Assembly: GCA_017526905.1 (NCBI GenBank)
Contig: JAFXQT010000090.1
Span: 6,927 to 70,926, forward strand
Length of the DNA: 64,000 nt
Source of the DNA: Bacteroidaceae bacterium
GTDB taxonomy: Bacteria; Bacteroidota; Bacteroidia; Bacteroidales; Bacteroidaceae
Reading direction: 5' to 3'
Shown here: piece by piece, positions 4,301 to 42,139 of the stretch
Position numbering within the stretch: position 1 is the first letter of the stretch
How the letters are laid out: every line of letters starts with the position of its first letter
The notes under the pieces: generated by a model
Databases searched by the model: none
The model's input: only the letters and a program-made list of their open reading frames with translations
Told to the model about the DNA's origin: nothing
Made by a program: the position numbers and the translations under genes

Positions 4301-4984
4301 ATGCGCATAGACATCATCACCGTCCTTCCCGAACTGATTGAAGGCTTTCTCAACGAGAGCATTCTTGGAAGGGCACAGAAAAAAGGGCTTGTAGAGATTC
4401 ATCTTCACAACCTTCGCGACTACTCCAGCCGCAAAGACCGCCGCATTGACGATTACCCCTTCGGAGGCTTTGCCGGCATGGTCATGCAATGCGAGCCAAT
4501 CGACCGTTGCATCAGCGCCCTGAAGGCCGAGCGCCACTACGACGAGGTCATCTTTACCACCCCCGATGGCGAGCAGTTCTCCCAGCCCATGGCCAATAGC
4601 CTCTCACTGTGCCAGAACATTATTATCCTGTGCGGTCACTACAAAGGCATCGACTACCGCATCCGCGAGCATCTCATCACAAAGGAGGTGAGCATTGGCG
4701 ACTACGTCCTTACAGGTGGCGAACTGGCTGCCGCCGTCATGGCCGACGCCATCGTGCGCATCCTGCCCGGCGCCATCGGCGACGAGCAGAGCGCTCTCTC
4801 CGACTCCTTCCAGGACAACCTCCTGGCTGCACCCGTCTATACCCGCCCTGCCGACTACCGCGGCTGGCGCGTCCCCGATATCCTCCTCTCCGGCCACGAA
4901 GCCAAAATCAAGGAGTGGGAACTGCAGCAGAGTATGGAACGCACCAAACGACTGCGACCGGACCTGATAAAAGATAAGAGATAA
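4301..4984 (+). CDS. trmD: tRNA (guanine37-N1)-methyltransferase
   Basis: 227-aa [59 protein letters not shown] and [14 protein letters not shown] are typical TrmD blocks along the whole length. The last residues (LIKDKR) are encoded by the AGATAAR tandem array. Confidence 0.95.
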
Positions 4985-5017
4985 AAGATAAGAGATAAGA
5001 GATAAAAGATAAGAGAT
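4966..5017. repeat. tandem heptamer array AGATAAR
   Basis: GATAAAAGATAAGAGATAAAAGATAAGAGATAAGAGATAAAAGATAAGAGAT. It spans the trmD stop. Confidence 0.9.
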
Positions 5018-5072
5018 ATGGGCACATCCTTCTGCAATTCTGATACATCTTTTAGCAAGTCTAATACATCTT

Positions 5073-5108
5073 GCTCCCTCCCTACTGGGAGGGCGGGGGG
5101 AGAGTCCG
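5073..5108 (+). repeat. GC-rich palindromic element, solo type-a arm
   Basis: GCTCCCTCCCtactGGGAGGGCGGGGGGAGAGTCCG. It lies inside a 33-codon mini-ORF (5018-5119, ...SLPTGRAGGESDKR) and is flanked on both sides by AGATAAR arrays. Confidence 0.85.
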
Positions 5109-5139
5109 ATAAGAGATAAGAGATAAGAGATGAAGATAG
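5108..5139. repeat. tandem heptamer array AGATAAG
   Basis: GATAAGAGATAAGAGATAAGAGATGAAGATAG. It contains the first ATG of the PHP ORF. Confidence 0.9.
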
Positions 5140-10597: not shown

Positions 10598-11913
10598 AGT
10601 TTCTCCTTCCCTTTGTACTTCGTCATATCGCTGACCACAAGCTGTTCGCCTTCGCTAAGTCCACTGACGACCTCGATGTAGTCATAGTTGCACTCGCCCA
10701 GCTGCACCTCGCGTGGCACGAGGGTCTCATCGTCCTTGAATACATATAAGGTGTACTTTCCGGGTCCAGCATAGAACGAGCCGTTGCGGATGCGGAGGGC
10801 GTCGTCCTTGATGCTGGTGATGACGTAAACCTCGGCGCGCAGCCCTGAGCGCAGGCGGGGATGGCTCATGTCATCGGGCACCACGGTGAAGGTGATGGCG
10901 CCACTTTGGCTCATGGGCGTGACGGTGTTGATGGTGCCCGCAAGGCGCTCCTTGCCGATGCGCAGTACGACGGCTCCTCCGACGCGGACTCGTTCGCTGT
11001 AGCTGTCGGAGATCTCACACTCGGCCTTGAAGTGCGTGAGGTCGCTCACCACGGCTATCTTCTGTCCGGCGCCGACGGTGCTGCCCACCTCGCTGTTGAT
11101 GTAGGTCAGCGTGGCGCGGCGCGGCGAGCGTATCTTGGCATCGTCGAGGGTGCGGCGCTTCTCGTCGAGCCCTTTCTCGAAGATATTGTTCTGCAGTTGC
11201 TGCATCCGCAGGTCGGCTTGCCGCACGCGCTGCTCGTTGCGGTACTGCTGGCGCAGCTGCGACAGTTGCAGCTGGGCGGTGCGCAGGGTGGTCTCGGCCT
11301 GCCGCACGCGGTCGCGTGTGCCGGAGCCGAGGCTGTCGAGGTAGAGCTCGTTGCGCAGCTGGGCTTCGAGCTGTGAGAGTTTCATCTCTTCCACCTCAAT
11401 CTGCATACGGCGGTCGGCGAGCTGTGTCTCTGTGTTGGCCTGCAGCTGTGCTGTCTGCTGCCTACGTATCTCGCGTTCGTCGAGCGCCTTGGCGTAATCG
11501 GTCTCGGCCGACTGCAGGTCGAGGCGCAGCAGCGGAGTGCCCACGTCCACGCTGTCGCCGCTGTGGGCATAGACCTCCAGGATCTGCGAGCTGATGGGCG
11601 ACACGATAATCTCCTCGAAGGCGGGCACGACGCGTCCCGTGGCCGTGACGCTGACATCGATGGTGCCGCGGTCCACCTCGGAGATGACGAGCGCCTTGCG
11701 GTCGAGGGCCGTCACCATCTGTGAGCCGAGCCAAGCGCCTGCGCCCAGCACGATGAGTATGGCGCCTACCAACTTTCCTATTCTCAACAGCTTATTGCGC
11801 CGTTGTACATTGACGGGGATGGCTCGGTCCATGGAAGAGGAGGACTCTCCCCCCCGCCCCTCCCTATGAGGGAGGGGAGTAGGATGTTTAAGGCTAGATG
11901 TATTCGTTTCCAT
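10576..11913 (-). CDS. HlyD-family membrane fusion (periplasmic adaptor) protein
   Basis: 445-aa ORF with an N-terminal TM anchor (LLRIGKLVGAILIVLGAGAWL), a long coiled-coil (QLADRRMQIEVEEMKLSQLEAQLRNE...) and barrel/lipoyl-like flanks. An alternative ATG at 11832 (MDRAIPV) would exclude the repeat-derived N-terminus. Confidence 0.85.
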   Translation of the reverse strand: METNTSSLKHPTPLPHREGRGGESSSSMDRAIPVNVQRRNKLLRIGKLVGAILIVLGAGAWLGSQMVTALDRKALVISEVDRGTIDVSVTATGRVVPAFEEIIVSPISSQILEVYAHSGDSVDVGTPLLRLDLQSAETDYAKALDEREIRRQQTAQLQANTETQLADRRMQIEVEEMKLSQLEAQLRNELYLDSLGSGTRDRVRQAETTLRTAQLQLSQLRQQYRNEQRVRQADLRMQQLQNNIFEKGLDEKRRTLDDAKIRSPRRATLTYINSEVGSTVGAGQKIAVVSDLTHFKAECEISDSYSERVRVGGAVVLRIGKERLAGTINTVTPMSQSGAITFTVVPDDMSHPRLRSGLRAEVYVITSIKDDALRIRNGSFYAGPGKYTLYVFKDDETLVPREVQLGECNYDYIEVVSGLSEGEQLVVSDMTKYKGKEKLRVKSKE

Positions 11914-12118
11914 TTTGTTTAATTGTCATTTAATCTGTTTACAATTCTTGAAAGGTATTTGCTCCCTCCCTCGCTCGGCTGAGGGGAAGCCCCCTCTAAA
12001 TCCCCCCGAGGGGGGACTTGCGTTTCCATTGGGAATCCAGAGGATATGGTCGCCCCCCCCTCGGGGGGGACGGGAGGGGGCTTCCCCTACAGGGAGGGCG
12101 GGGGGAGAGTCCGATTCT
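11842..12118. repeat. composite GC-rich palindromic element (type a) at the TolC/HlyD junction with a nested 100-bp unit
   Basis: Inner arm: GGACTCTCCCCCCCGCCCCTCCCtatgAGGGAGGGGAG (11842-11883). Outer arm: GGGAGGGCGGGGGGAGAGTCCG (to 12118). The nested unit is 11981-12080. The HlyD ATG (11913) lies inside the element and the TolC stop (12087) lies in the outer arm. Confidence 0.8.
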
Positions 12119-15046: not shown

Positions 15047-16539
15047 TTCTTCTGATTTAACGATTCGACAATAGGTTTGCGTAGTGAGGTCCATGACGGT
15101 ATGAGGGCGACCATGAGGTTGAGGACGACGCAGCAGAGGAAGACGATGAGGAAGAGCGTGGGCGTGACGAACATCTTGGGGTCCAACGTGATATCACCTG
15201 TGAGGTTGCCTTCGCGGAGGATGAACGCCTGGAACAAGGCCGTATGACGGACGGCAAGGTAGAACAGCCAAGAGAGCACCCAACCCACGAGACCTCCGCA
15301 GCACGTTAGGACGAGGTTCTCGCGAATGACCTCGCGCAGCAGCGTGCGCCGCTTGGCTCCGAAGGCCTTGCGGATACCCATCTCTGCCCGCCGTGCTTCC
15401 ATGCGGTTGCTAACGAGACCGCTGAGGTTCAGGGCTGGCAGCAGCAGGAAGATAAGCATCAGGATGGCTGGCGGCATCAGGTTCTTGGCCTTGTCGGAAG
15501 TGGACTCATCATCGGAGTGGAAGAAGGAGAAGCACACGAAGAAATGTGACTTAGCATCCAGGGTGAAGTGCACCGGCTCACCTTCAACTGAACTCTGTGC
15601 CGCCTCATAGCGTCGGCACAGCGGCTCCAGCTCCTTCAGGAAGTCATCGCGCGAATAGCCCTTCTTCAGCAGCACACGCACGCTGAGGTTCCCTTGATAG
15701 TTGCTAGGATTAGATTCGGTATAGCTCAGACTCTTGCCAAGGCTGGGGACATAGATCTCTGCGTATGAAGTATCCATCAATGGGCTGGTTCTCTTGATGA
15801 CACCGATGATGCGGTAGGGGACGGAGTTGATGTAAATAAAAGAGGAGGAGCCCACCCCTAACCCCTCCCCAAGGGAGGGGGATTCGTTTCCGCTGGTATT
15901 TCTCTTTTGTTTTTTTTCTGCCACTTTGGACTCCCCTCCCTTGGGGAGGGGATGGGGGTGGGCCGATTCAAGGTGGGCCACCCCTATCTTTTCCAACAAC
16001 TTATCCGTCACCACACACACCTGCTCGCCATTGCGGAACTCCTGTTCGTTGAAAGGGCGGCCTTCGAGGAATTGGAAGTCATAGAGTTGAAAGAAGCGGT
16101 GGTCGCAGAATATGGCCTTCACGGAGTTTTGGGGGTTATTGGATACTGCCGATATGGAATCAACTGTAATCTCCCGATAAGGGTCCACTCGCAACCCTGT
16201 TGCCACCTCCACGCACTCCAGCTTACTGAACAACTCATCGACGGCCAAGGTGCTGCAGCCTGAGTAGAGTGGATCGCCTATCTCGCTGTCTTTGTATTGC
16301 AAGGCGGTGACATACAACGTGCGGTCGCGATGCTTCTCCGGGTAGATATTCGCCATCTTGACATTAAGCAGGATGGCCACTACCATAGCCGAGGCAATGG
16401 CCACCGCCGTGCCCGCGACGTAGATGGCGGAGAACAACTTGTCCTCACGGATGAGGGAGAAGGCGTGGGAGACCCACCCCCAACCCCTCCCTGTGAGGGA
16501 GGGGAGTAGATAGTCTTTAACCCAAAATGATATGTTCAT
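15043..16539 (-). CDS. ABC transporter permease, FtsX/MacB type (A-type paralog, A3)
   Basis: N-terminal TM motif LFSAIYVAGTAVAIA. MacB-like periplasmic domain. C-terminal FtsX block (FGAKRRTLLREVIRENL). It contains a complete 114-bp GC-rich element in-frame. The ATG lies inside an intercistronic element. Confidence 0.8.
   Translation of the reverse strand: MNISFWVKDYLLPSLTGRGWGWVSHAFSLIREDKLFSAIYVAGTAVAIASAMVVAILLNVKMANIYPEKHRDRTLYVTALQYKDSEIGDPLYSGCSTLAVDELFSKLECVEVATGLRVDPYREITVDSISAVSNNPQNSVKAIFCDHRFFQLYDFQFLEGRPFNEQEFRNGEQVCVVTDKLLEKIGVAHLESAHPHPLPKGGESKVAEKKQKRNTSGNESPSLGEGLGVGSSSFIYINSVPYRIIGVIKRTSPLMDTSYAEIYVPSLGKSLSYTESNPSNYQGNLSVRVLLKKGYSRDDFLKELEPLCRRYEAAQSSVEGEPVHFTLDAKSHFFVCFSFFHSDDESTSDKAKNLMPPAILMLIFLLLPALNLSGLVSNRMEARRAEMGIRKAFGAKRRTLLREVIRENLVLTCCGGLVGWVLSWLFYLAVRHTALFQAFILREGNLTGDITLDPKMFVTPTLFLIVFLCCVVLNLMVALIPSWTSLRKPIVESLNQKK
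15850..15963. repeat. complete 114-bp type-b palindromic element inside permease A3 CDS
   Basis: GCCCACCCCTAACCCCTCCCCAAGGGAGGGGG - 51 nt (including T8) - CTCCCCTCCCTTGGGGAGGGGATGGGGGTGGGC. In-frame, translated as HPHPLPKGGESKVAEKKQKRNTSGNESPSLGEGLGVG. Confidence 0.9.
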
Positions 16540-16616
16540 ATAATAATCTTTTTGCTAATCTGCACTTGAAAGTTACCACTCCCCTCCCTTTAGGGAGGGG
16601 CCGGGGGTGAGTCTGA
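16471..16616. repeat. composite type-b element filling the ATPase/permease-A3 junction
   Basis: Arms at 16471-16509 and 16576-16616 are inverted copies, ~80% identical by eye. The A3 ATG (16539) lies in the spacer. The ATPase stop (16617) abuts the outer arm. Confidence 0.8.
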
Positions 16617-17435
16617 TTACTGAATCTGCCGTCCATCCAAGAACTTAATAATCCTGTCCGTCTGCTGGGCCTGCTTCTCGTTGTGCGTCACCATGACAAT
16701 GGTGCGGCCGTCCTCTTTGTTCAGCTTATGCAGCAGCTCCATAATCTCGGCACCCATCTTCGAGTCGAGGTTACCTGTGGGCTCGTCGGCGAGGAGGATC
16801 TCGGGGTTACCGATGATGGCGCGGGCGATGGCTACGCGCTGGCACTGACCACCTGAGAGTTGCGTTGGGCGGTGCTTCATTCGGTGTGAGAGGCCTACGC
16901 GGGCTATGACTTCCTTGGCCAAGCGTGTGCGCTCGCTGCGGCCTACGCCACGATAGATGAGGGGCAGCATCACGTTGTCCAGGACGTTCAGCGTCGGGAT
17001 GAGGTGGAAGCTCTGGAAGACGAAGCCCAGCGTGCGGTTGCGGATCTCCGCCAGGCGGTTGTCGCTCATGTGCGGGTCGATGCGCTGTCCGCACAGTTCT
17101 ATCTCGCCGCTGGTGGGTTCGTCCAGCAAGCCCATGATGTTCAGCAGGGTCGATTTGCCGCAGCCCGAAGGTCCCATGATGCTCAGGAACTCACCCTTCT
17201 GCACTTCGATGTTCACGTTCTCCAACGCCTGTGTCTCCACTTCGTCGGTGCGGTAGATTTTGTTGATCTCAGTGAGCTTAATGGAAGACCCTCCTCCCGA
17301 GGACTCTCCCCCCGCCCTCCCTTGTAGGGAGGGAGCAGATACCATTTGACCGTTAGCGTTCTGCTGGGTTGTCGAATTCGCTTGTTTGTTTGGTTGGTTA
17401 CTTACTTGGTTGTCGGAATTAACTTGAGTATTCAT
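16617..17435 (-). CDS. ABC transporter ATP-binding protein (MacB/LolD-like)
   Basis: Walker A ([12 protein letters not shown]), signature ([14 protein letters not shown]), Walker B ([11 protein letters not shown]) and H-loop (VTHN). A ~50-aa Q/N-rich N-terminal extension ending in [13 protein letters not shown] is repeat-derived. Confidence 0.9.
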
Positions 17436-17539
17436 ACTTTTAGTATTTATTGGTTATTAACTTGTTCCTAATTTACTTCTATTCTTGAAAGGTGACCACT
17501 CTCCTCCCTACAAGGGAGGGGCTGGGGGGGGGAGGGTCC
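17301..17539. repeat. composite type-a element filling the fused-permease/ATPase junction
   Basis: Arms: GGACTCTCCCCCCGCCCTCCCttgtAGGGAGGGAGC (17301-17336) and its inverted copy with complementary loop acaa (17496-17539). The ATPase ATG (17435) lies in the spacer. The fused-permease stop (17541) abuts the outer arm. Confidence 0.85.
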
Positions 17540-17540
17540 T

Positions 17541-20060
17541 CTACTCTTCCTTTATTGCCTCCGTTATCCTCGTCCTGCTTATCCTCCACGCAGGGATTGC
17601 CGTTCCGATGAGCACGGTGCCTAATATAATAAGGTACACGCACGCGGAGACGATGAGGAAGTGGGTGCCGAAGCTGTCGAACCAGAGGTTTTTGGGACCA
17701 TCGGTGACGAGTTCCCCAGTGAAGAGCCCCTTGGAGGCCGCTATCTGGAAATAGATGATGCAGCCGAGAACGACGCTGACGGACGTGAGCAGCCATGCTT
17801 CGCGCAGGAAACCGAGGAACACGCTGCGCCGCGTGGCGCCGAAGGCACGCCGCACGCCAGCCTCCTCGCGCCGTTGCTGTGTGTACATCAGTAGGGAACC
17901 GAAGACACCGAAGGCTAGGTTCACGGCAAAGAAAGCTGCTATGAGCAGGTTGCGGCGGTTATGACCGTTCACACCGATACGCTCCGTCCGTTGCTCCAGA
18001 GCTTTCTGGCCTGGCTGCATCTGGCGTATATAGAGGTGTTCCGTCACCAAGCCACGCATCAGCTGCTCTCCACGCTCCTCGATGAAGCGGGTGGCATTCA
18101 CGCCATCGCGCAGCCGAAGAATGATTGGCGGCGTTGTCGTTCCTTCGGTGGTGCAACGGAACACCATGGAGCGGTCGCGGTCGAAAGCGTCGGCACGCAC
18201 GTCCTCCACCACGGCACGGATGCGATAGGGTTGCCAGTGCTGCTGCTGTCCGTCATCCCAATCCCAGAAGTAGCTCTGCACCTGTCGGCCGGCCACGTCT
18301 GTAGTGCCGAAGAGCGCTGTGGCAAAGGAACGGGTGACGATGATGTCCCGGTCATACTCGCAGCCCTGCGACAGCTCGCTTGTGGGCACGCCGGGCGTGA
18401 TGGACTGAATACCGAATATCTCGAACAGCGGAGAGCCCGGCCGGAACGAGTAATGGAAGGCGGTGAGTGTGTCGCCATCGACGCAATACTCGCGTGCTGT
18501 TGTTGGAGAGTAGAACACGGGAGCCACGCCGTCGGCGACGTATGCCCTCTCCACTCCCTCACACTCCTTCACCTTTTCCAGGAGGTGGTGTATTTCGTCG
18601 TCGTAGGAATAGATTTGATGGTCCGACTCCTGCTGGCGATAGCTGCTGGCGATTTGCAGTTGCACCACCTTCTCGGCATCATAGCCCAGAGGCATGTGTG
18701 TGATGAAAGCGTTCACGGTAACGGGGTCGAAGGTCCACCAACAAACCACTGTCACGAGCGTGAGTTCGGCCGCCAGCCACACCTTCGAGCGCCATCCGCC
18801 GCCTTCGCCCTGCTCCTCTTTCATCATGCCCTTCACAATGGGTTGTCTCAGGCTGAGCCAGGCAGGCAGTGCCGCTGCCAGCAGGTTCAGCAGCAGGCAT
18901 ACGAGCAATGCTGTGAGGAAGATGGCGGGAGCAAAAAGCATCTCGCCTTTCAACACAGGCACCGTCGCGTAGATGCCATTGCGGGTGGCGAAGAGATCAA
19001 AGACCCAGTCGCGCCAAGCGTAGATGGCCATCCACGCCAGGAAGAGTCCTACGGCGCCGCCGATGAGCGTCAGCCGCAGATTCTCCTTGATGACCAGCCT
19101 GAGCAGCGTGCGCCGCTTGGCACCGAAGGCCTTACGGACGGCCATCTCCGGCAGACGGTGTTGCATCCGGGCGGCCACCATGCCGCTGAGGTTCAGGGCC
19201 GGCACCAACAAAAGCAGCAGGATGGAGAGGGCCACGTACCACCAGAGGCTGTGGCTGTTGTCCGCCAGGAATACGGCGGTGAGTCCTTGCCACACGCTGG
19301 AATAATGCGATATGACAGAGGATTGAAGATCAATGGGAGTGTCTGTATTGACGCTGTTGTAGCGTGCTTGCACCTCCTTCAGTTCCTCGAAGAAGGCCTC
19401 GCGCTTGTCCTCTGCTACGGCAAAGCGAACAGCGAAAGGGACGTTCTCATAGGTTAAGGTAATCCCATTCACCACGAATACACCCTCGGCCATGTACGGC
19501 AGGTAGATGTCGGCACAGCAATTCTCTGTCAGCACCGATGGCGTTTCCACGATTCCACAGATGCGGTATTCCCGGTTGTTGAGCACGAGCGTTCCCCCCT
19601 GTTCCAATCCTTGTCGCCTGGCCAAGTCCTCGGTGACGACCGCCACGCAGCGGCGGCTGTCCATATCGTCCTCGGTGAACGGCGCCCCGCTTACGAAGCG
19701 GAACTGATAGAAGCGGAAGAAGGCAGGGTCGGTGACGATGGCGTTCACGCGGCGGTCGCGCAGGCCGTCGTGTTGCCGAATATAGTAGTTTTCCGGGTTA
19801 TAGAGCTGCGCCACCGCCGTCGCGCAGTCCGGAGTCTGCATCGATGTGGTAAGCTCGTGCTGAAGCCAGTGCCCTATCATCGTCACTTCTTTCTTATTCT
19901 GAAGTGAGGCAGCAAAGTTCATCGTGTACGTCCGGCTGCGGTTCACCTCTGGCGCGATGTCGGCCACTTTCACGTAGTAGATCTCGGCAATGACCATCGT
20001 GAAGGCGATGGCGATGGCGGTGCCGAGGATATAGATGGTGGAGAAAAGCTTATTATTCAT
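17541..20060 (-). CDS. fused double FtsX/MacB-type permease (A-type half + B-type half)
   Basis: 839-aa ORF. Residues ~1-405 align with A-type permeases (LFSTIYILGTAIAIAF ... FGAKRRTLLRLVIKENL ... LRQPIVKGMMKEE). Residues ~415-839 align with B-type permeases (LAAELTLVTVVCWWTFDPV ... FGATRRSVFLGF ... AWRISRTRITEAIKEE). The start overlaps the upstream stop by 8 nt. Confidence 0.8.
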   Translation of the reverse strand: MNNKLFSTIYILGTAIAIAFTMVIAEIYYVKVADIAPEVNRSRTYTMNFAASLQNKKEVTMIGHWLQHELTTSMQTPDCATAVAQLYNPENYYIRQHDGLRDRRVNAIVTDPAFFRFYQFRFVSGAPFTEDDMDSRRCVAVVTEDLARRQGLEQGGTLVLNNREYRICGIVETPSVLTENCCADIYLPYMAEGVFVVNGITLTYENVPFAVRFAVAEDKREAFFEELKEVQARYNSVNTDTPIDLQSSVISHYSSVWQGLTAVFLADNSHSLWWYVALSILLLLLVPALNLSGMVAARMQHRLPEMAVRKAFGAKRRTLLRLVIKENLRLTLIGGAVGLFLAWMAIYAWRDWVFDLFATRNGIYATVPVLKGEMLFAPAIFLTALLVCLLLNLLAAALPAWLSLRQPIVKGMMKEEQGEGGGWRSKVWLAAELTLVTVVCWWTFDPVTVNAFITHMPLGYDAEKVVQLQIASSYRQQESDHQIYSYDDEIHHLLEKVKECEGVERAYVADGVAPVFYSPTTAREYCVDGDTLTAFHYSFRPGSPLFEIFGIQSITPGVPTSELSQGCEYDRDIIVTRSFATALFGTTDVAGRQVQSYFWDWDDGQQQHWQPYRIRAVVEDVRADAFDRDRSMVFRCTTEGTTTPPIILRLRDGVNATRFIEERGEQLMRGLVTEHLYIRQMQPGQKALEQRTERIGVNGHNRRNLLIAAFFAVNLAFGVFGSLLMYTQQRREEAGVRRAFGATRRSVFLGFLREAWLLTSVSVVLGCIIYFQIAASKGLFTGELVTDGPKNLWFDSFGTHFLIVSACVYLIILGTVLIGTAIPAWRISRTRITEAIKEE

Positions 20061-21387
20061 CTTTCAAAGCCTCGTTGATATTCGTTCTCGTAATGCGCCA
20101 CGCCGGAATAGCCGTTCCGATGAGCACGGTGAGTAATATAATAAGGTACACGCACGCGGAGATGACGAGGAAATGGGGCCAAAAGTGGTCGGGCCAGGTC
20201 ATGTCCGAGGGGATGTTGACGAGTCGCGGAACATAGAGCTTTTCGCTGTAGGTGAAGCCGTTCTCGAGGGTGGAGTAACCGCTGTGGGCGTAGTTCAGGT
20301 AAATGATGAGCCCGACGGCAACAGCGGCGGTTGCGAGGGCGGCGTTGCGCAGTAACATCTCCCAGAGCAGACGCAGTTTCGTAGCTCCGAAGGCGCGGCG
20401 GACGCCACACTCCTCTGTGCGGCGCTTGGCGTGAAACCACACGGTGCCGATGACGGCCAGGCAGAGGTTGACGAGGAAGAAGAGGGCGAGGGCCAGACTG
20501 CGGTTTACCTCCTGTGTGCGGCCGTCGTCGAGCTCCAATTGCTGTAGGTGGTCGTCGTAGGTCATGAGGCGGCTGACACGGGTGTAGTTGGTGCGTGCGT
20601 TGCGGATGAGGTCGCGGCCGTGCTCCTCCACGAAGCGTCGGGCGTCCACGCCATGCTTCAGACGGATGACGAAGCGGCAGCGGGTGGTGGTCAGGTTTTC
20701 GGGTTGGAAGATGAGCGAACGCATGTTGTAGCCCAACGACTTGCGGATGTCCTCCACCACGCCTGCCACCGTCACCTCAGACTCTGGGTTGTAGCAGAAC
20801 GTGAGGCGACGCCCCACCACATCTGCGGAGCCAAACAGCGCCATGGCACTGGTACGTGTCAGCACCACCTTCTGCTCCGACCTTTTGATACACGAGAGCT
20901 CCTCGGCCGACGGGCTGCCAGGCAGGGGCTGCAGGCCGTAGGTCTCGAAGAAGTGGGAGTCGGGGATGAAGGCGAGCCAGCCCATATAAAGCGTATCGGC
21001 CTCGTGGCGACATGGGGAATAAGTCTCGTTGGTATGACCGATAGACCAAAGGTCCTGGTCGTAGAGATAGGCTGATTCCACGCCCTCCACGGTCGTGAGC
21101 TGGCGCGTCATCTGCTGCCGCCGTTCCTCGGTAATGTTGTACGGATCGCTCATCTCCTCTTCCGATGCCTCCTCTGATGGGCTCACGGTACATTCGCCAT
21201 AGAGCAGGCGGTTGGTGTCGTAGCCAAGGGGCAGACTGCGATAGTAGAGGTTGACGACGGCGGGGTCGAAGACCACCCAGGCAACGACGGTAATGATGAC
21301 GAGCTCGAGGAAAAGGACGGACTCTCCCCCCGCCCTCCCTGTTAGGGAGGGAGCGGAATGTATTTGACTGGCTGTATTCATTTTCAT
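20053..21387 (-). CDS. ABC transporter permease, FtsX/MacB type (B-type paralog, B1)
   Basis: B-type N-terminal TM (LFLELVIITVVAWVVFDP) and C-terminal FtsX block (FGATKLRLLWEM ... AWRITRTNINEALKDE). The first 23 codons (MKMNTASQIHSAPSLTGRAGGES) lie in a GC-rich element. Confidence 0.8.
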   Translation of the reverse strand: MKMNTASQIHSAPSLTGRAGGESVLFLELVIITVVAWVVFDPAVVNLYYRSLPLGYDTNRLLYGECTVSPSEEASEEEMSDPYNITEERRQQMTRQLTTVEGVESAYLYDQDLWSIGHTNETYSPCRHEADTLYMGWLAFIPDSHFFETYGLQPLPGSPSAEELSCIKRSEQKVVLTRTSAMALFGSADVVGRRLTFCYNPESEVTVAGVVEDIRKSLGYNMRSLIFQPENLTTTRCRFVIRLKHGVDARRFVEEHGRDLIRNARTNYTRVSRLMTYDDHLQQLELDDGRTQEVNRSLALALFFLVNLCLAVIGTVWFHAKRRTEECGVRRAFGATKLRLLWEMLLRNAALATAAVAVGLIIYLNYAHSGYSTLENGFTYSEKLYVPRLVNIPSDMTWPDHFWPHFLVISACVYLIILLTVLIGTAIPAWRITRTNINEALKDE

Positions 21388-21480
21388 TTATGTTTTATTG
21401 TTCATTTAATCTTTTTAAGTGTTTACCATCCTTGAAGGTATTTGCTCCCTCCCTAACAGGGAGGGCGGGGGGAGAGTCCG
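21319..21480. repeat. composite type-a element filling the permease-A1/B1 junction
   Basis: Arms: GGACTCTCCCCCCGCCCTCCCtgttAGGGAGGGAGC (21319-21354) and GCTCCCTCCCTaacaGGGAGGGCGGGGGGAGAGTCCG (21443-21480). They are near-perfect inverted repeats. The B1 ATG (21387) lies in the spacer. The A1 stop is at 21485. Confidence 0.9.
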
Positions 21481-21484
21481 TTTT

Positions 21485-22825
21485 TTATTGCTTTTCCATC
21501 ATTGATTGGACAATAGGTTTACGCAAGCACCACCACGCAGGCACGACGGCGGCGAGGAGGTTGAGGAGGAGAATGGCTGCAAAGGCGCCGAGGAAGAGTG
21601 CGGGAGCAAAGAGCATCTCACCCGAGACGAGGGGTGCTGAGCTGAGGGTGCTGTTATCGAAGAACATACCGAGAATTTCACGGCGGAAACCATAGATGGC
21701 CAGCCAAGCGAGTACAAGTCCGATGATGCCTCCGATGGTTGTCATCACCAGATTCTCCCACACCACCTGATGTAAAAGCGTGCTGCGACGTGCTCCGAAG
21801 GTCTTGCGCACAGCCATCTCTGCCGACCGTCGCTCCATGCGTCCCGCCACAATGCCGCAGAGGTTCAACGCCGGCACGAAGAGCAACACGAAGAGGATGC
21901 CCGCGTAGTGCCGAAAGAGCTGCCAACCCGAAGGCACCTCGAACTCGCCATCGCGGTTCTCTGCGCGCAGCACGTGCATCGGGTGCGTCGCCATATTCCT
22001 TGTCAGTACCATCTTCATTTTCACTCCTTCGCCGAAACCGAAATTCGAGCAGATGTCGGGATTCGTTTGCTGAATACGTGCCGCCACTCCATCGAGTTCA
22101 GTCTTCAGCGCTTGTAAGTGCTCGTTGTCTTTCACTGTAGCCACGATGGAGAATATGCCTTGGTAAGGCGAGCCGCCACAGAAATCCACGAGGTTATAGG
22201 GTACGATGAAATCGGCATAGCTGTCGGGCGTGAGCTGACTGCCGCTGCGCACCACGCCCACCACACGCGCCTCGTTGAAGTTTTCCAAGCCGACCATTTG
22301 CCCCACGGCGTCCACGCCCTTGCCGAACAGCCGCTCAGCCAGCGCATCGGAGATGACACAGACTGACTCATGCCCATCCACTTCTTGTTTCGTGAAGGGC
22401 CGTCCGCTCACGAAGTCGTACTCGTAGATCTTGAAGAAGTCGGCGTTGGTCCAATTCCTGACGACGTCGAAGTACTCATTGTCGAACTTAGCATATTCGT
22501 GGCTGCGGCTTTCAGACTTTCCCGTGCCAGCGGCGAGCAGCGTGGGGGCGCAGTACTCGATGTTCGGGCTGGCTGCGAACCACTCCTCGAACGCCTTCGG
22601 GCTAAAGCCTGTCTTTCCCATCCCGCCGTTCTCGGCCTCGATGTAAATGCCCTCGAAATAGACCGTCCGCGCCCGGTTCCTCTCAGGGTAGATGGGCGCC
22701 AACTTGATGTAATACACTACGGCCATCACCATCGTGAAGGCAATGGCCAAGGCCGTTCCCACGATGTATATGCCGGAGAAAAGCCGTTCCTCGCGCAGCA
22801 GGGCGAGGGCTTGGCGAAAATACAT
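21485..22825 (-). CDS. ABC transporter permease, FtsX/MacB type (A-type paralog, A1)
   Basis: A-type motif LFSGIYIVGTALAIAF and FtsX block FGARRSTLLHQVVWENL. I chose the start at 22825 (MYFRQALALL). The ORF is open to 22906, but that extension (MNSERMNSNK...) is encoded by a CATTCTTTC repeat array. Confidence 0.75.
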   Translation of the reverse strand: MYFRQALALLREERLFSGIYIVGTALAIAFTMVMAVVYYIKLAPIYPERNRARTVYFEGIYIEAENGGMGKTGFSPKAFEEWFAASPNIEYCAPTLLAAGTGKSESRSHEYAKFDNEYFDVVRNWTNADFFKIYEYDFVSGRPFTKQEVDGHESVCVISDALAERLFGKGVDAVGQMVGLENFNEARVVGVVRSGSQLTPDSYADFIVPYNLVDFCGGSPYQGIFSIVATVKDNEHLQALKTELDGVAARIQQTNPDICSNFGFGEGVKMKMVLTRNMATHPMHVLRAENRDGEFEVPSGWQLFRHYAGILFVLLFVPALNLCGIVAGRMERRSAEMAVRKTFGARRSTLLHQVVWENLVMTTIGGIIGLVLAWLAIYGFRREILGMFFDNSTLSSAPLVSGEMLFAPALFLGAFAAILLLNLLAAVVPAWWCLRKPIVQSMMEKQ

Positions 22826-35853: not shown

Positions 35854-36053
35854 CGTCATTTTGTAAACATAGCGAAAAGAGCAGGCTTAGTTTCTTAGTT
35901 GCAATAACGCGCAAGTTATAGATTGTTACCATATACACAATTATCAATTACAAATTAAAAAGAAATACAGATTGTAACAAACAATATGTAACAAGCAACA
36001 AAATAAATACACTTAAATAGGGCCCCTTCCATTGCCAGAAAAACGAAAGTTTG

Positions 36054-36061
36054 TACCTTTG
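36054..36061 (+). promoter_or_regulatory. Bacteroidota -7 promoter box (TAnnTTTG)
   Basis: TACCTTTG, 46 nt upstream of the gltB ATG at 36107. Confidence 0.6.
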
Positions 36062-36106
36062 CAGCGATTTACAAAAAGAAAGCACAAACTTTGTTTTATA
36101 AGCAAA

Positions 36107-39100
36107 ATGATAAAGGATAACGGACTATACAGACACGACATGGAGCACGACGCCTGCGGCGTAGGAATGGTCGTAAATATCCATGGTGGCAAGAGCCACG
36201 AACTGGTGGATCAGGCGCTGCGGGTGCTGGAGCACATGCAGCACCGCGGTGCCGAGGGCGCCGACAACAAGACGGGCGACGGTGCCGGCATCATGATTCA
36301 GATACCCCATGAGTTCATACTCCTGCAGGGCATCCCTGTTCCCGAGAAAGGACATTATGGCACGGGGCTGGTCTTTCTGCCTAAGGACGAAAGGGCACAA
36401 GACGCTCTGCTTGCAATCATCAGCGAAGAGACGGAACGCGAAGGGCTGAAGCTCGCCCATGTGCGCACCGTTCCGACAAATCCCGACTGTCTCGGCACCA
36501 CCGCCCTCAGCAGCGAACCTTCCATCAAGCAGCTGTTCATAACAGGAGAGAGCGACGAACCGACCGACAGCCTCGCGCGTACATTATATATTATACGCAA
36601 GCACGTGGAGCGACGTGTTCGCGAACTCGCAACACAGAGTCCCGCCTACGACGCATTCTACATCTGCTCGCTGAGCAACACAAACATCATCTATAAAGGC
36701 ATGCTGACCAGCATACAGCTGCGACAGTATTTCACGGACCTGCAAAGTCCTTATCTGACAAGCGGACTGGCGCTGGTGCACTCACGTTTCAGCACAAACA
36801 CCTTCCCCACGTGGGCACTGGCCCAGCCCTTCCGTCTGTTGGCACACAACGGCGAAATCAACACCATCCGCGGCAACCGCCTCTGGATGCAGGCGCGAGA
36901 GAGTGTGCTGCACTCCACGGTCTTGGGCGAGGCGTCGGACATAGCACCCATCATCGAACCGGACATGAGCGATTCGGCCTCGCTGGACAATGTGCTGGAA
37001 TACCTCGTCATGGCCGGCCTATCGCTACCGCACGCCATGAGCGTGCTCGTGCCGGAGTCGTTCAACGACAAGAACCCCATCAGCCCTGAGCTGAAGGCCT
37101 TCTATGAATACCACTCCATTCTGATGGAGCCGTGGGACGGTCCGGCGGCCCTGCTTTTCTCCGACGGACGTTACGCCGGCGGTATGCTCGACCGCAACGG
37201 CCTGCGCCCGGCACGCTACGCCATCACAAAGAACGGCATGATGATCGTGGCATCGGAGGTTGGCGTGATAGATTTCGATCCTGGCAAGATAGCCGAGAAA
37301 GGGCGCCTGCAACCAGGCAAGATACTGCTCATCGACACCCAAGAGGGCCGTATCTACTACGACGGCGAGGTGAAGCGACAGCTGGCGGCTGCGCACCCCT
37401 ACGGGCAGTGGCTCTCAACCAACCGCGTCCAGCTGGAAAAGCTGAAGAGCGGCCGTAAGGTGGAAAACGGGCTCCCCGACTTGCAACAGAAGGAGGCGCT
37501 CTTCGGCTACGGTGCCGAAGACATAGACGCCACCATCATACCCATGGCGACGAAGGGCCAGGAGCCCACGGCATCGATGGGCAACGACACGCCGCTGGCT
37601 GTACTGAGCGAGCGCCCGCAGGTGTTCTTCAACTATTTCCGCCAGCAGTTTGCGCAGGTGACAAACCCGGCCATTGACTCCATTCGCGAGGAACTTGTGA
37701 TGAGCCTCACGGAATATATCGGGCGCGTAGGAACGGGCATATTGAGCCCCGACGAGACGAACTGTAAGATGGTGCGTCTGCCCCACCCCATCCTGACCGG
37801 CACGCAGCTGGACATGCTATGCAACATCGGCTACAAGGGGTTCAAGACAATTAAGTTGACATTAGCCCACCCCCAGCCCCTCCCCAAGGGAGGGGAGACT
37901 GATTGGTCTCTGGCTGGTGAAAACCTTAGGATAGCATTGGACAAACTCTGCAAGGATGCAGAACAGGCAGTGGATGATGGTTATAATTACATTATTCTGA
38001 CGGACAAGGAATGCCCCTCCGCCGGGGAGGGGATGAGATGGGCTTACATCCCCTCGCTCCTGGCCGTCTCGGCCGTCCACCACTATCTCATCCGCGCCGG
38101 CAAGCGTGTGCAGACGGCGCTCATCGTAGAGTCCGGCGAGATCCGCGAGACGATGCACGCTGCCCTGCTGCTGGGCTACGGAGCCTCGGCCCTGTGCCCC
38201 TATATGGTTTACGCCATTCTCGACGACCTGGTCAGGCGCGGAAAGATTCAGGAGGACTACGCCAACGCCGAGGCCAACTACATCAAGGCTGTGAAAAAAG
38301 GACTGTTCAAGATCATGGCCAAGATGGGCATCTCGACCATCCGCAGCTATCGCGGTGCCAAGATCTTCGAGGCTGTAGGCCTGAGCGAAGAGGTGCTGAG
38401 AACCTACTTCGGCACGGAAGTGAGCACGATTGGTGGTGCCGGCCTCGAGAAGATTGCCAGCGATGCCATCCGCAGGAAGGAAGGGAATGAAGCGCTAAAG
38501 GACAACGGCCAGTTCCACTGGCGGCGCGATGGCATCCGGCATGCCTGGAACCCCGAGACGATAGCACGCCTGCAGCTGGCCTGCCGCACAGGGTCGTACG
38601 AGAAGTTCAAGGAGTGGGCGCGGCTGGTCGACGAGAAGCAGCAGCCCATCTTCCTCCGCGACTTGTTGGCTCCTGCTACGACAGAAACGGGAAAGGCAGG
38701 TGCCATCCCCCTTGACGAGGTCGAACCAGAGGAGGAAATCATGAAGCACTTCGTGGCTGGCGCCATGAGCTTCGGTGCCCTGAGCAAAGAGGCCCACGAG
38801 GCCATATGCCTGGCTATGAACAAGATCGGCGGACGTTCCAACACCGGCGAGGGCGGTGAGGATCCGTCACGCTTCCACGCCACCATCGACGGCATCAGCC
38901 TCAACAGCAAGACGAAGCAAGTGGCCAGCGGGCGCTTCGGCGTCACGACGGAATATCTCGCTAACGCCGAGGAGATACAGATCAAGGTGGCCCAGGGCGC
39001 CAAGCCTGGCGAAGGCGGTCAGCTGCCGGGCTTCAAGGTGAATGAGGTCATTGCCCGCACGCGCCACAGCATACCCGGCATATCGCTCATCTCGCCACCG

Positions 39101-40669
39101 CCCCATCACGATGTCTACTCCATCGAGGACCTGGCACAGCTCATCTTCGACCTCAAGAGCGTGAATCCCAGAGCAGCTGTCAGCGTGAAGCTGGTGGCCG
39201 AGAGCGGCGTGGGCACGATTGCAGCCGGTGTGGCCAAGGCCAAGGCCGACCTCATCGTCATCAGCGGCGCCGAGGGCGGCACGGGTGCATCACCAGCCAG
39301 CTCAATGCGCTTTGCGGGCATCTCGCCCGAGATAGGTCTGTCGGAATCGCAGCAGACGCTGGTGCGCAACGGGTTGCGTGGCGGTGTTCGTCTGCAAGTC
39401 GACGGCCAGCTGAAGACGGCACGCGACGTGGTGCTCATGGCACTGCTGGGGGCTGACGAGTTTGCTTTCGGCACGGCGGTGCTCATCGTGCTGGGCTGCG
39501 TGATGATGCGCAAGTGCAACCTCAACACCTGCCCGATGGGCGTAGCCACACAGGATGCCGAGCTCCGCCGCCATTTCATCGGGCGCTACGAACACCTCGT
39601 CAACTATTTCACTTTCCTCGCCCGCGAGGTGCGCGAGTATCTGGCTGCCATAGGCGCCCACTCGCTCAGCGAGATCGTAGGGCGCACCGACCTTATCGAG
39701 CTCAGGGCCAAGGGGGACGCTGACGGCGAGCTGTGCTGCACCGTCGCAGATGGCGTCACGCTCAACTTCAGCCGTCTGCTTCATCAAGAAACGGGCGAGC
39801 TCCACTTCACCGCCGACGCCCGTCAGCCTCAGGCGCCGTTGGGCAAACAGTCCGACAGCCTTGACGAGCGCATCATGGAGGATCGCAAAGCCTCATCAGT
39901 ACTCGCCTACACGATTCACAATACCGACCGTGCCGTAGGCGCCCGTCTCGCGGGTTCGATAGCCGAAGTGTGTGGCTTGGCCGGTCTTCCCGAAGGCCCC
40001 GTCAGTGTCAGCTTCAAGGGCTCTGCCGGCCAGTCGTTCGGTGCCTTCCTCGTGCGCGGCATCAGTTTCTGGCTCGAAGGCGAGACAAACGACTATTTCG
40101 CCAAGGGACTGTCGGGCGGACGCATAGCCATTCTGCCTCCGGCCGGGGCGACCTTTGCCGCCGAGGACAACGTCATAGCCGGCAACACAGGGCTCTACGG
40201 CGCCACGAGTGGCGAGCTCTACGTGAACGGCCGCGTGGGCGAACGCTTCGGCGTGCGAAACAGCGGGGCCACGGCCATCATCGAAGGCGCCGGCGACCAC
40301 TGCTGCGAATATATGACGGGCGGACGCGTCGTCGTGCTCGGCCCCACGGGGCGCAACTTCGCAGCGGGCATGAGCGGCGGTTTGGCCTACGTCTATGACC
40401 CATCCCACACCTTCGACTACTTCTGCAATATGGACATGGTGGAACTCTCGCTCGTCGAGGACAGCGCAAGCCGCAAGGAGCTGCTGGAGCTCATCCGCCA
40501 GCACTACCTGCACACCGGCTCCGCCCTTGCCGGACGGATGCTCGACGACTGGAGCGCCTACGTCAAAGATTTTATCCAAGTGACGCCCATCGAGTACAAA
40601 CGCGTGCTCGAAGAGGAAAAGATGCTACGGCTGAAACAGAAGATTGCCGACGTGCAAGGAGAATACTGA
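36107..40669 (+). CDS. gltB: glutamate synthase large subunit
   Basis: ~1520 aa. Ntn start (HDACGVGMV), FMN/central domains and the GXGXG C-terminal domain (GNTGLYGATSGELYVNGRVGERFGVRNSGA). I chose the start at 36107 (MIKDNG). The ORF is open to 36032. A TACCTTTG box lies at 36054-36061. Confidence 0.95.
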   Translation: MIKDNGLYRHDMEHDACGVGMVVNIHGGKSHELVDQALRVLEHMQHRGAEGADNKTGDGAGIMIQIPHEFILLQGIPVPEKGHYGTGLVFLPKDERAQDALLAIISEETEREGLKLAHVRTVPTNPDCLGTTALSSEPSIKQLFITGESDEPTDSLARTLYIIRKHVERRVRELATQSPAYDAFYICSLSNTNIIYKGMLTSIQLRQYFTDLQSPYLTSGLALVHSRFSTNTFPTWALAQPFRLLAHNGEINTIRGNRLWMQARESVLHSTVLGEASDIAPIIEPDMSDSASLDNVLEYLVMAGLSLPHAMSVLVPESFNDKNPISPELKAFYEYHSILMEPWDGPAALLFSDGRYAGGMLDRNGLRPARYAITKNGMMIVASEVGVIDFDPGKIAEKGRLQPGKILLIDTQEGRIYYDGEVKRQLAAAHPYGQWLSTNRVQLEKLKSGRKVENGLPDLQQKEALFGYGAEDIDATIIPMATKGQEPTASMGNDTPLAVLSERPQVFFNYFRQQFAQVTNPAIDSIREELVMSLTEYIGRVGTGILSPDETNCKMVRLPHPILTGTQLDMLCNIGYKGFKTIKLTLAHPQPLPKGGETDWSLAGENLRIALDKLCKDAEQAVDDGYNYIILTDKECPSAGEGMRWAYIPSLLAVSAVHHYLIRAGKRVQTALIVESGEIRETMHAALLLGYGASALCPYMVYAILDDLVRRGKIQEDYANAEANYIKAVKKGLFKIMAKMGISTIRSYRGAKIFEAVGLSEEVLRTYFGTEVSTIGGAGLEKIASDAIRRKEGNEALKDNGQFHWRRDGIRHAWNPETIARLQLACRTGSYEKFKEWARLVDEKQQPIFLRDLLAPATTETGKAGAIPLDEVEPEEEIMKHFVAGAMSFGALSKEAHEAICLAMNKIGGRSNTGEGGEDPSRFHATIDGISLNSKTKQVASGRFGVTTEYLANAEEIQIKVAQGAKPGEGGQLPGFKVNEVIARTRHSIPGISLISPPPHHDVYSIEDLAQLIFDLKSVNPRAAVSVKLVAESGVGTIAAGVAKAKADLIVISGAEGGTGASPASSMRFAGISPEIGLSESQQTLVRNGLRGGVRLQVDGQLKTARDVVLMALLGADEFAFGTAVLIVLGCVMMRKCNLNTCPMGVATQDAELRRHFIGRYEHLVNYFTFLAREVREYLAAIGAHSLSEIVGRTDLIELRAKGDADGELCCTVADGVTLNFSRLLHQETGELHFTADARQPQAPLGKQSDSLDERIMEDRKASSVLAYTIHNTDRAVGARLAGSIAEVCGLAGLPEGPVSVSFKGSAGQSFGAFLVRGISFWLEGETNDYFAKGLSGGRIAILPPAGATFAAEDNVIAGNTGLYGATSGELYVNGRVGERFGVRNSGATAIIEGAGDHCCEYMTGGRVVVLGPTGRNFAAGMSGGLAYVYDPSHTFDYFCNMDMVELSLVEDSASRKELLELIRQHYLHTGSALAGRMLDDWSAYVKDFIQVTPIEYKRVLEEEKMLRLKQKIADVQGEY
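37865..37897. repeat. solo type-b arm inside gltB
   Basis: GCCCACCCCCAGCCCCTCCCCAAGGGAGGGGAG, translated as AHPQPLPKGGE. Confidence 0.8.
38013..38043. repeat. solo type-b-like arm inside gltB
   Basis: GCCCCTCCGCCGGGGAGGGGATGAGATGGGC, translated as CPSAGEGMRWA. Confidence 0.7.
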
Positions 40670-40720: not shown

Positions 40721-40788
40721 ATGGAAAAGAACTCAATATCTCAAATACATACCACTCCCTCCCTACAGGGAAGAGCGGGGGGAGGGGC
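40721..40788 (+). repeat. type-a arm with 5' ATG-containing module forming the gltD N-terminus
   Basis: ATGGAAAAGAACTCAATATCTCAAATACATACCACTCCCTCCCTACAGGGAAGAGCGGGGGGAGGGGC. It aligns over ~70 nt with the 5' ends of permease B1 and HlyD. Confidence 0.8.
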
Positions 40789-42139
40789 TGCCTTCCTCTA
40801 TGTGCACCGCCAGGAGGCGGGCTACCGCCCTGTGCACGACCGCATCCACGATTTCGGCGAGGTGGAGCAGACACTGAACACACGCGAGCGCAAGCTGCAG
40901 GCGTCGCGCTGCATGGATTGCGGCGTACCCTTCTGCCACTGGGCCTGCCCGCTGGGCAACAAACCGCCCGAATGGAACGACGCGCTTGCCCGTGGCGAGT
41001 GGGAACGGGCCTACCAGCTACTATCTGCCACCAACCCCTTCCCCGAGTTCACGGGGCGCGTCTGCCCAGCCCTCTGCGAGAAGGCATGCGTGCTCAACCG
41101 CTTCAACCACGAGCCCACCACCAACCGCGAGGACGAAGCAGCCATCACCGAGGGTGCCTTCCGCGAGCGGTTCATACAGCCGCGCATCCCCCAGCGCAAT
41201 GGCAAGCACGTGGCCGTCATCGGCAGCGGACCGGCCGGACTGGCTGCGGCCGACGCGCTGAACCAGATGGGCTACACCGTCACCGTCTTCGAGAAGGACG
41301 AGGCCCCCGGAGGCCTGCTACGCTACGGCATCCCTAACTTTAAGCTCAACAAGGCCATCATCGACCGCCGCATCCGTGTGCTGGAGGCCGAGGGCATTGA
41401 CTTCAAGTATAATTGTCCCGTTTCCTCCGCTGCGCTTCTATCGCAGCTCAATGCCTCCTTCGATGCCATCGTCGTCGCCACCGGCACCCCCACTGCCCGC
41501 GACCTCGACATCCCCGGCCGCTCGCTCAGTGGCATTCACCTGGCCCTGGAACTGCTTTCGCAGCAAAACCGTGTGCTCGCAGGCATGGAGTTCTCAAAAG
41601 ACGAGCGCATCACAGCGCGCGGCAAGGACGTGCTGGTCATCGGCGGAGGCGACACGGGCAGCGACTGCATAGGCACCGCCCATCGCCAAGGCGCTCGCAG
41701 CGTCACGCAGATCGAGATCATGCCGCGCCCCGTTGAAGGTCCCGACGACCCGCAGAACCCTTGGCCGGCCTACCCACGCACGCTCAAGACCACCTCGTCG
41801 CACGAAGAAGGCTGCACGCGCCGATGGAACATCAACACATTAGAGTTCCTCTCGGCCGACGGCAAACACGTCAGCGGCGTCAAGGTACAGGAAATCGAAT
41901 GGCAGCCGAACCCGGCAGGCGGCCGGCCGCGGATGGCGCCCAAGGGCGAACCCGAAATCATCAAGGCCGAGCTCGTGCTGCTGGCCATGGGATTCCTCAA
42001 GCCCGAACACCCACAATACCCCGAGCAGGTCTTCGTCTGCGGCGATGCTGCCAACGGAGCCAGCCTCGTCGTGCGCGCCATGGCCAGCGGCAGGGAGACA
42101 GCACTCAAGGTGCATGAATATTTGAGTAATGGATCGTAG
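40721..42139 (+). CDS. gltD: glutamate synthase small subunit (NADPH)
   Basis: 472 aa. Fe-S cysteine clusters (CMDCGVPFCHWACP, GRVCPALCEKAC) and FAD/NAD folds (VAVIGSGPAGLAAA, VLVIGGGDTGSDC). The first ~24 codons are a GC-rich repeat module. A GTG (YVH) downstream is an alternative start. Confidence 0.92.
   Translation: MEKNSISQIHTTPSLQGRAGGGAAFLYVHRQEAGYRPVHDRIHDFGEVEQTLNTRERKLQASRCMDCGVPFCHWACPLGNKPPEWNDALARGEWERAYQLLSATNPFPEFTGRVCPALCEKACVLNRFNHEPTTNREDEAAITEGAFRERFIQPRIPQRNGKHVAVIGSGPAGLAAADALNQMGYTVTVFEKDEAPGGLLRYGIPNFKLNKAIIDRRIRVLEAEGIDFKYNCPVSSAALLSQLNASFDAIVVATGTPTARDLDIPGRSLSGIHLALELLSQQNRVLAGMEFSKDERITARGKDVLVIGGGDTGSDCIGTAHRQGARSVTQIEIMPRPVEGPDDPQNPWPAYPRTLKTTSSHEEGCTRRWNINTLEFLSADGKHVSGVKVQEIEWQPNPAGGRPRMAPKGEPEIIKAELVLLAMGFLKPEHPQYPEQVFVCGDAANGASLVVRAMASGRETALKVHEYLSNGS

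Follow-up and report, generated by a model that had tools for sequence, protein, structure and literature searches.

Why should unrelated genes of one bacterium begin with the same DNA? The question is raised by a 64,000-nucleotide window (C28:6927-70926) of a Bacteroidaceae genome (G000), in which the glutamate synthase gene gltD, the permease gene B1 (21387, minus strand) and hlyD (11913, minus strand) open with alignable copies of one ATG-bearing module (E = 1e-13 to 1e-18), and in which the three predicted N-terminal peptides read as the initial annotation had quoted them. That annotation had proposed a portable translation-start module fused in frame to whatever lies downstream. We found that the module is the outward-facing (right-hand) end of a larger mobile palindromic element. 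On the evidence of orthologue comparisons and of reading frames, we consider it likely that the ATG borne by this repeat has replaced the native start and first codons of gltD and of other genes, and that their proteins begin with a repeat-encoded peptide.

The G000 assembly is fragmented and of metagenome type (2.80 Mb in 104 contigs, 57.5% G+C, 79% complete), the strain occurs in samples from sheep, cattle and goats, and the closest relatives of its gltD were found in metagenome assemblies of rumen Prevotellaceae and 'Bacteroidaceae'. An nhmmer profile built from six window copies and run on the whole genome recovered 90 copies, and the hairpin core of the module matched 16 times in the window, against 0.55 matches expected from shuffles. 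Given these counts and the strong E-values of the copies, the similarity between module copies is real and far beyond chance.

At gltD, the module (40721..40794, plus strand; nhmmer E = 1.7e-13) is a solo, partly decayed right-hand element end that makes up codons 1-23 of the gene. It consists of the ATG (40721-40723), an AT-rich leader to 40756, a weakened hairpin (40757-40775) and a G-rich tail (40776-40789), and conserved GltD sequence (AFL…) follows on the plus strand from 40790. The sequence is ATGGAAAAGAACTCAATATCTCAAATACATACCACT-CCCTCCCT-ACA-GGGAAGAG-CGGGGGGAGGGGCT, then GCC TTC CTC; the right hairpin arm is GGGAAGAG in place of AGGGAGGG, so the hairpin is decaying. Upstream in the same operon lies gltB, encoding the large subunit (36032..40669, plus strand), with its stop 51 nt before the module ATG. 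We examined 80 GltD orthologue loci lacking or carrying the module, the comparison by which the initial annotation had suggested its idea could be checked. The module is absent from 71 of them, nearly all of which start MGNPKAFL (MGNPKAFLEIHRQEAG, MGNPKAFLEIHRQEAGYRP). In the module-bearing GltD of the window and of L001, L002, L004, L009, L025, L028, L035, L062 (decayed) and L072, the module peptide replaces MGNPK and is joined in frame to A/S-F-L/M. The lengths vary only by whole codons (23 to 26 residues before FL), and the AFL codons vary synonymously (GCC/GCT/GCA, TTC/TTT, CTC/CTG/TTA); both features fit a translated region.

The initial annotation had named a GTG within YVH as an alternative gltD start (V28; 40802..40804, plus strand). 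Among the ten module-bearing orthologues this GTG is present only in the window, L001 and L025, and initiation there would cost GltD its conserved AFLY. In L002, L009 and L062, no in-frame ATG, GTG or TTG follows the module ATG until the M of RCMDCG, 35 conserved residues further on.

A single ancient insertion in gltD was ruled out by the GltD tree, which requires at least four gains or losses of the module and places L009, which carries it, as sister to L039, which starts MGNPK (support 100/95, short branches). When L009 was compared with L039, L048 and L061, the replaced segment began some 36 nt ahead of the gltB stop and ended at gltD codon 5, with repeat DNA encoding both a new gltB C-terminus (the last ~12 codons) and the new gltD start. 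As a separate observation, the gltB end of L009 (about -190 to 0 before gltD) is a different GC hairpin repeat, CCTCCCCCGAGGGGGAGG, and one event rewrote the C-terminus of one protein and the N-terminus of the next.

The module is also present in RNA joined to gltD, since a 146-nt metatranscriptome contig (run X25) equals 40721-40866 with 0 differences; this contig places no transcription or translation start. It begins exactly at the module ATG, possibly at a unitig break rather than a 5' end, and no RNA contig matched the AT-rich stretch upstream of 40721 at 97% likeness. The GltD junction peptides predicted from this arrangement are the tryptic peptide NSISQIHTTPSLQGR and also AGGGAAFLYVHR.

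Is the module translated elsewhere in the genome? Its frame is open from the ATG through leader, hairpin and tail and reads …(S/T)(A/T)PSL(T/Q)GRAGGES. For 48 copies a co-oriented gene is present 180 nt downstream of the tail; it is in frame 0 with the tail (GAG TCC) in 35 cases, against 7 and 6 in the other frames (binomial p = 2.4e-8). When downstream open frames of 120 codons or more were counted purely mechanically, the numbers were 36, 10 and 11, frame 0 first. The frame of the tail can be selected only if the tail is translated, so this bias argues for translation. The frame of a gene does not depend on which start codon is chosen. Leader ATGs also divide unequally by frame, with 35 in frame 0 against 19 and 26, the sole excess that stands out. 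About 20-30 genes in the genome begin with the module, a genome-wide count that the initial annotation had called for. They include gltD, B1, the permease gene at 15043-16539, ValS, RecQ, the bifunctional HisB and a FucP-type MFS transporter, and all carrier open reading frames (ORFs) are full length.

Permease B1 offers a filled site with empty counterparts. A complete tail-out doublet lies between two permease genes (21312..21486, minus strand; E = 1.8e-18 and 1.4e-15), consisting of a left end (21414-21483), a very AT-rich centre and the right-end module (21316-21387, E = 1.8e-18), and B1 opens at the module ATG at 21387 or 21381 (minus strand). B1 relatives in G005, G003 and G022 (94-96% identical) start MNMKLNILNANGWLFIELVII, with an ATG that overlaps the upstream stop (ATGA). 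Comparison of the filled site with the empty ones in G005 and G022 showed that ~46 nt of the window locus, including the native start/stop overlap, have been replaced by the ~180-nt doublet; the upstream gene now ends in TAA, and B1 reads MKMNTASQIHSAPSLTGRAGGES-VLFLELVII. The doublet ATG is the only start before the first transmembrane helix of B1, the next being a GTG inside that helix.

The same kind of replacement was seen in ValS, whose relatives start MELASKYSPAEVEGKWY, while the proteins of G000 and G020 read the module and then LASKYSPAEVEG. In RecQ the next start after the module falls inside the Pfam DEAD domain, in the FucP-type transporter beyond the first helix of the MFS domain, and in HisB beyond LFIDRDGT, which we take to be the HAD catalytic motif. 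Thus far, comparison at the sequence level has shown native-start replacement, recurrence at the same gene and frame bias, to which the anatomy of the element described below is added. Apart from these comparisons, short internal segments in the ValS region (C69:24619-25290), namely LEAPSGAVEGAS, SPLPTSPRGGDYPWG and LEAPSGAVGEGATS, look repeat-derived.

Several points weigh against translation from the module ATG. The module-ATG starts are deduced from frames and orthologues only, and the gene calls come from a crude codon-usage caller. A crude count over 79 copies gave 80 leader ATGs against 39-74 for permuted trinucleotides, which is no striking enrichment; a general enrichment of ATG across all leaders was accordingly set aside as weak. 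At hlyD (module METNTSSLKHPTPLPHREGRGGES, 11838..11914, minus strand, E = 4.8e-15) M.ADNQTMDRQIPV is the reading in relatives, and their inner ATG is also kept in the window (MDRAIPV, 11821-11823), five codons past the module. The hlyD start is therefore ambiguous between the module ATG and the native MDR ATG, and hlyD was dropped as a decisive case. A plausible start lies just past the module in Fmt (TTG at LRIIF), in a PurM-like protein, in TrmB and at C69:31722. At C76:22519 an in-frame copy has no ATG and the gene starts after it; an in-frame module does not always mean that its ATG is used.

These downstream starts, with the GTG of the window gltD, are what would be expected if the module were an untranslated 5' leader, with real starts at GTG, TTG or near-cognate codons further on and the shared peptides as artefacts of calling the longest ORF. 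We consider this improbable. An untranslated leader gives no reason for the frame shared by 35 of the 48 genes, and it leaves the gltD of L002, L009 and L062 with no start for the conserved residues past the module. Residues that follow the module are conserved with synonymous changes in GltD (AFL), ValS (LASKYSPAE) and B1 (LF.ELVII), and RecQ, HisB and the FucP-type transporter, if begun at their next start, would lose essential motifs or the first helix. Translation from the module ATG could also come about because the peptide is a selected functional tag for regulation, degradation or sorting, spread for that function and not as a by-product of selfish DNA. The kept frame and the recurrence of PSL(T/Q)GRAGGES on ~25 proteins speak for such a tag, but we regard it as very unlikely: the same DNA turns up in either orientation, within genes as well as between them and also as tandem arrays, the carriers are cytoplasmic enzymes and membrane proteins alike, and hairpin variants give different peptides, PSLTGRAGGES and PLPTREGQGGGS. 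The peptide evolves fast as well: the window and L001, ~95% identical over the remaining GltD, show 8 differences within residues 1-23. This fast change and the decaying hairpin fit a passenger peptide that is tolerated, not one that serves as a functional tag. That the module-bearing genes are inactivated copies, or that the joins are assembly errors, seems scarcely credible to us. Repeats are the classic places of misassembly and the assembly is fragmented and incomplete, but four independent metagenome studies yielded contigs that run across gltB, module and gltD with 0-1 differences, so this join is not an assembly artefact, and it recurs in other assemblies (L001 and others). The full length of the carrier ORFs does not suit inactivated copies, and ValS, which is essential, is single-copy in G000.

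Two kinds of RNA feature were also considered and rejected. A known RNA family was ruled out by an Rfam scan of the whole window, which returned nothing at gathering thresholds, the lone match at the gltD module being chance (E = 0.11). As for a structured RNA leader, the fold z-scores of -0.5 to -1.5 were not significant, and the short hairpin was the sole structure predicted.

What, then, is the module a part of? Each copy has an AT-rich leader (~35 nt), a GC hairpin of 8-9 bp (CCCTCCCT-loop-AGGGAGGG) and a G-rich tail (CGGGGGGAGAGTCC), and a pyrimidine run often lies 3' of the tail. Of 25 adjacent opposite-strand pairs, 24 are tail-out doublets of 116-300 bp with their leaders facing each other. 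In the doublet at B1 the arms of 43 nt are 95% complementary and form terminal inverted repeats, as in MITEs (miniature transposable elements with inverted repeats). The comparisons above favour the portable start proposed in the initial annotation; the module is not a free unit, being one end of a tail-out inverted doublet or of a longer cassette. The centre of the element is either short and AT-rich or, in cassettes of ~500 bp, occupied by a DUF559 gene. AT-rich centres mostly have stops in all three frames, while doublets with GC-rich centres leave one or more frames open on one or both strands, and some such copies lie in frame inside long ORFs. The leader ATG sits just downstream of the element centre; it is typical of the 'AGTCnAATACAT' leader subfamily, in about two-thirds of its copies, and is not found in every copy.

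Comparison with relatives shows that the element lands at a gene boundary with loss of native sequence on both sides. The upstream gene then ends at or just before the left end of the element, and the downstream gene loses its own start and its first 5-16 codons. We propose that insertions would persist only where the tail reads in frame with what is left of the gene. The seven carriers named above and some twenty others would be translated from the module ATG and would bear a fast-evolving, probably disordered N-terminal peptide of ~20 residues. An unpaired, A/U-rich stretch between about -30 and +30 may aid initiation; in the fold predictions the start region is unpaired and the hairpin begins at about +33 to +36, which we take to be outside the footprint of the initiating ribosome. 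Such an arrangement would suit Bacteroidota, in which Shine-Dalgarno pairing plays little part.

The longer form of the element points to a possible means of spread. Two inverted pairs, of 500 and 508 bp, enclose an ORF for a DUF559 (Vsr-like PD-(D/E)xK) protein. In one (C66:45472-45971; Pfam E = 1e-33) the nuclease gene ends …TTC GAA TGA and the module ATG overlaps that stop (gaATGAat) and reads into fmt; in the other (C58:1830-2337; Pfam E = 1.7e-29) the arrangement is ATGAATGA and the module ATG reads into a 225-amino-acid (aa) ORF. In both cassettes, then, the nuclease stop overlaps or abuts the module ATG, and the C66 cassette, judged by eye, agrees in its leader and end with the B1 doublet at most positions. 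In 14 of 34 DUF559 genes of relatives, an ORF of 190 aa or more opens at an ATG lying -16 to +5 nt from the stop; ends matching the module profile stand on both sides of 11 of these 34 loci, and on the left side alone in three more. DUF559 genes were present in all six genomes with at least 19 copies of the element, against 11 of 24 same-genus genomes with zero copies. Three further DUF559 ORFs in the genome (C76:3415-3738, C49:863-1180 and C67:50999-51316) belong to open frames 265-565 aa long, 146-446 aa of which lie upstream; they are not flanked by ends of this module family and probably belong to other hairpin families.

The long forms with these ends encode only DUF559 and not a known transposase, no search having been aimed at DDE transposases between such ends. 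A REP/RAYT system was ruled out, as RAYT (PF01797) gave no match in the 79% complete genome, against matches in 6 of 14 control genomes. No target-site duplication was visible in the filled/empty comparisons at B1 (~46 nt of native DNA replaced) or at gltD of L009 (~36 nt plus 5 codons replaced). The DUF559 nuclease may be the mobilising enzyme, and movement may proceed by break-and-repair replacement and not by transposition, because no target duplication was seen. Against an element mobilised in this way it must be said that a transposase may have been missed in an incomplete genome, that no target duplication was seen, and that we know of no activity of the DUF559 protein. We put forward, tentatively and with some doubt, the wider proposal that this is a selfish family with a built-in 'stop and restart' translation cassette, namely stops in every frame of the centre, then its own ATG and an open, hairpin-tolerant frame. 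Such a family could establish itself where genes of an operon meet and at 5' gene ends, writing over native stops and starts while the flanking genes survive, and DUF559 would spread it by break and repair; it might then be a new class of bacterial mobile element that limits its harm as inteins and self-splicing introns do.

The exact hairpin-plus-tail variant was found in 13 of 37 same-genus genomes, with up to 64 copies and many perfect pattern matches, and in none of 24 other genera of the order; the reversed control pattern gave 0. Among the 25 genera sampled, the element family is confined to a single genus of rumen Prevotella-like bacteria, and its patchy, high-copy distribution indicates recent spread.

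Rickettsia palindromic elements (RPEs) are in-frame palindromic repeats in unrelated genes (Ogata et al., 2000, 2002, as summarised in PMC10969869). Like RPEs, the present family is a short, multi-copy palindromic repeat (90 copies; doublets of 116-300 bp) that lies in frame in unrelated housekeeping genes, would be read as an extra peptide, has no recognised transposase and is tolerated in permissive parts of proteins. The keeping of in-frame insertions within ORFs is evident from the frame test and from the gltD, B1 and ValS comparisons, translation itself being deduced. RPEs are described as internal insertions, whereas here an ATG-bearing end takes the place of the native start and the codons next to it. 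Host phylum and sequence are also different, as are the operon-junction sites with stops in all frames and the DUF559 long form whose stop overlaps or abuts the ATG. We would therefore say that the family works like an RPE, likened by mode of action and not by sequence comparison, and do not file it as an RPE member. Enterobacterial RU-1, RU-2 and RU-3 (ERIC-type) elements are fused to ORFs, and RU-2 forms the N-terminal part of four Yersinia proteins (Delihas, 2007; PMC2759123). Those are likewise MITE-like repeats with their own open frames at N- or C-terminal protein ends. They belong to a different sequence family, and the cases are mostly small or hypothetical ORFs from annotation, whereas in the present family conserved enzymes carry the repeat, and the loss of the native start can be read from filled and empty sites in close relatives. 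Compared with RPEs and RU/ERIC elements, the new features of this family are that it carries a start codon, overwrites native starts and stops at operon junctions, resides in conserved housekeeping genes and has a nuclease long form.

The likeness to REP and REPIN-RAYT systems (REP classes, PMC3733652) lies in the GC-rich hairpins, the arrangement in inverted doublets (24 of the 25 adjacent opposite-strand pairs), the tens of copies and the patchy occurrence among close relatives. Unlike those systems, the family has no RAYT in the genome and is not confined to extragenic DNA, many copies lying within reading frames, and its associated gene is the DUF559 nuclease. No constant GTAG or CGTC tag of the REP type was seen in the module copies. 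Neisseria Correia elements and insertion sequence (IS) elements carry outward-facing expression signals, namely promoters or processing sites. The present family resembles them in that a mobile repeat brings expression signals to a neighbouring gene and is co-transcribed with it; what it would bring is a start codon and the first ~20 codons. In the literature on DUF559 with palindromic repeats, or on in-frame repeat elements of Prevotella, we found no description of such a family.

If translation from the module is true, gene starts in rumen Prevotellaceae could not be set by homology trimming, and hundreds of 'odd' N-termini in metagenomes would be real. Core genes (those for glutamate synthase, ValRS, RecQ and transporters) would be having their ends rewritten by selfish DNA, and these recurrent, datable events would serve as natural experiments on the N-terminal changes that proteins tolerate. 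Stop and restart signals together with a small nuclease would explain how tight junctions of compact operons are colonised, and would suggest a testable role for the large DUF559 family. The module might also serve as a compact, Shine-Dalgarno-free initiation part for engineering in Bacteroidota.

Other copies in the window lie near B1. A permease gene (15043-16539, minus strand) opens with a module at 16467..16533 (minus strand, E = 3.6e-11; MNISFWVKDYLLPSLTGRGWGWV-SHAFSLIREDKLFS), and the partner end of this element lies at 16565-16617 (plus strand). Its paralogues start M..VMYIRQALAMMREEKLFS, and its Pfam MacB_PCD match begins at residue 37. The gene called 'A3' in the initial annotation (…LPSLTGRGWGWV), said there to share the distal part of the repeat with an ABC ATPase, is this permease and not the 839-aa gene at 17541-20060; modules are indeed present in both 'A3' and the ATPase. 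In the ABC ATPase the module (17299..17362, minus strand, E = 4e-15) lies inside an N-terminal extension, with its partner end at 17467-17542 (plus strand). The frame is open further upstream, with MNTQV… 30 codons ahead of MVSAPS, and the extension is kept in the closest relative; in G005 a corresponding peptide stands at the same place. Synteny with G005 resolved the B1, ATPase and permease junctions, and the alignment ends at ~13665, short of the tolC/hlyD end. The 839-aa permease itself (17541-20060, minus strand) starts MNNKLFSTIYILG, against MSKIVMYLRQALATMREEPLYSAMYIAG in G005; its N-terminal helix is missing, and it overlaps the end of B1 by 8 nt.

At hlyD, the distal partner end of the element lies at 12083..12116 (plus strand), and a copy of a different GC-rich palindrome family sits between the two ends, at 11965-12105. 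The 33-codon ORF that the initial annotation reported between genes (5018..5119, plus strand) does exist and holds a solo module (5040-5109, E = 2.4e-14), flanked by AGATAAR arrays. Its frame runs into the AGATAAR array and is unfused to the next gene (start 5130), and nothing shows that it is a gene.

Tandem solo modules spaced by AGATAAR-type heptamers were observed in the window (4966-5017 and 5108-5139), at C64:14683-14924 and at C24:259-547; on C64, two free copies are followed by a third that is fused to hisB. In-frame modules or doublets also lie inside ORFs of 560-1200 aa at C43:15349-15425, C40:42240-42362, C73:29121-29180, C104:1916-2050 and C104:4397-4532. The frame is open on both sides of these five copies, each of which may be an internal insertion or may mark the fusion of two genes with no stop between them. 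In trmB (C95:42678-42863) a complete doublet lies in frame inside the gene (…LYRPTPLPLPCREGSSHLS…KVYTPLPTREGQGGESAFDL…), and the same gene also opens with the module.
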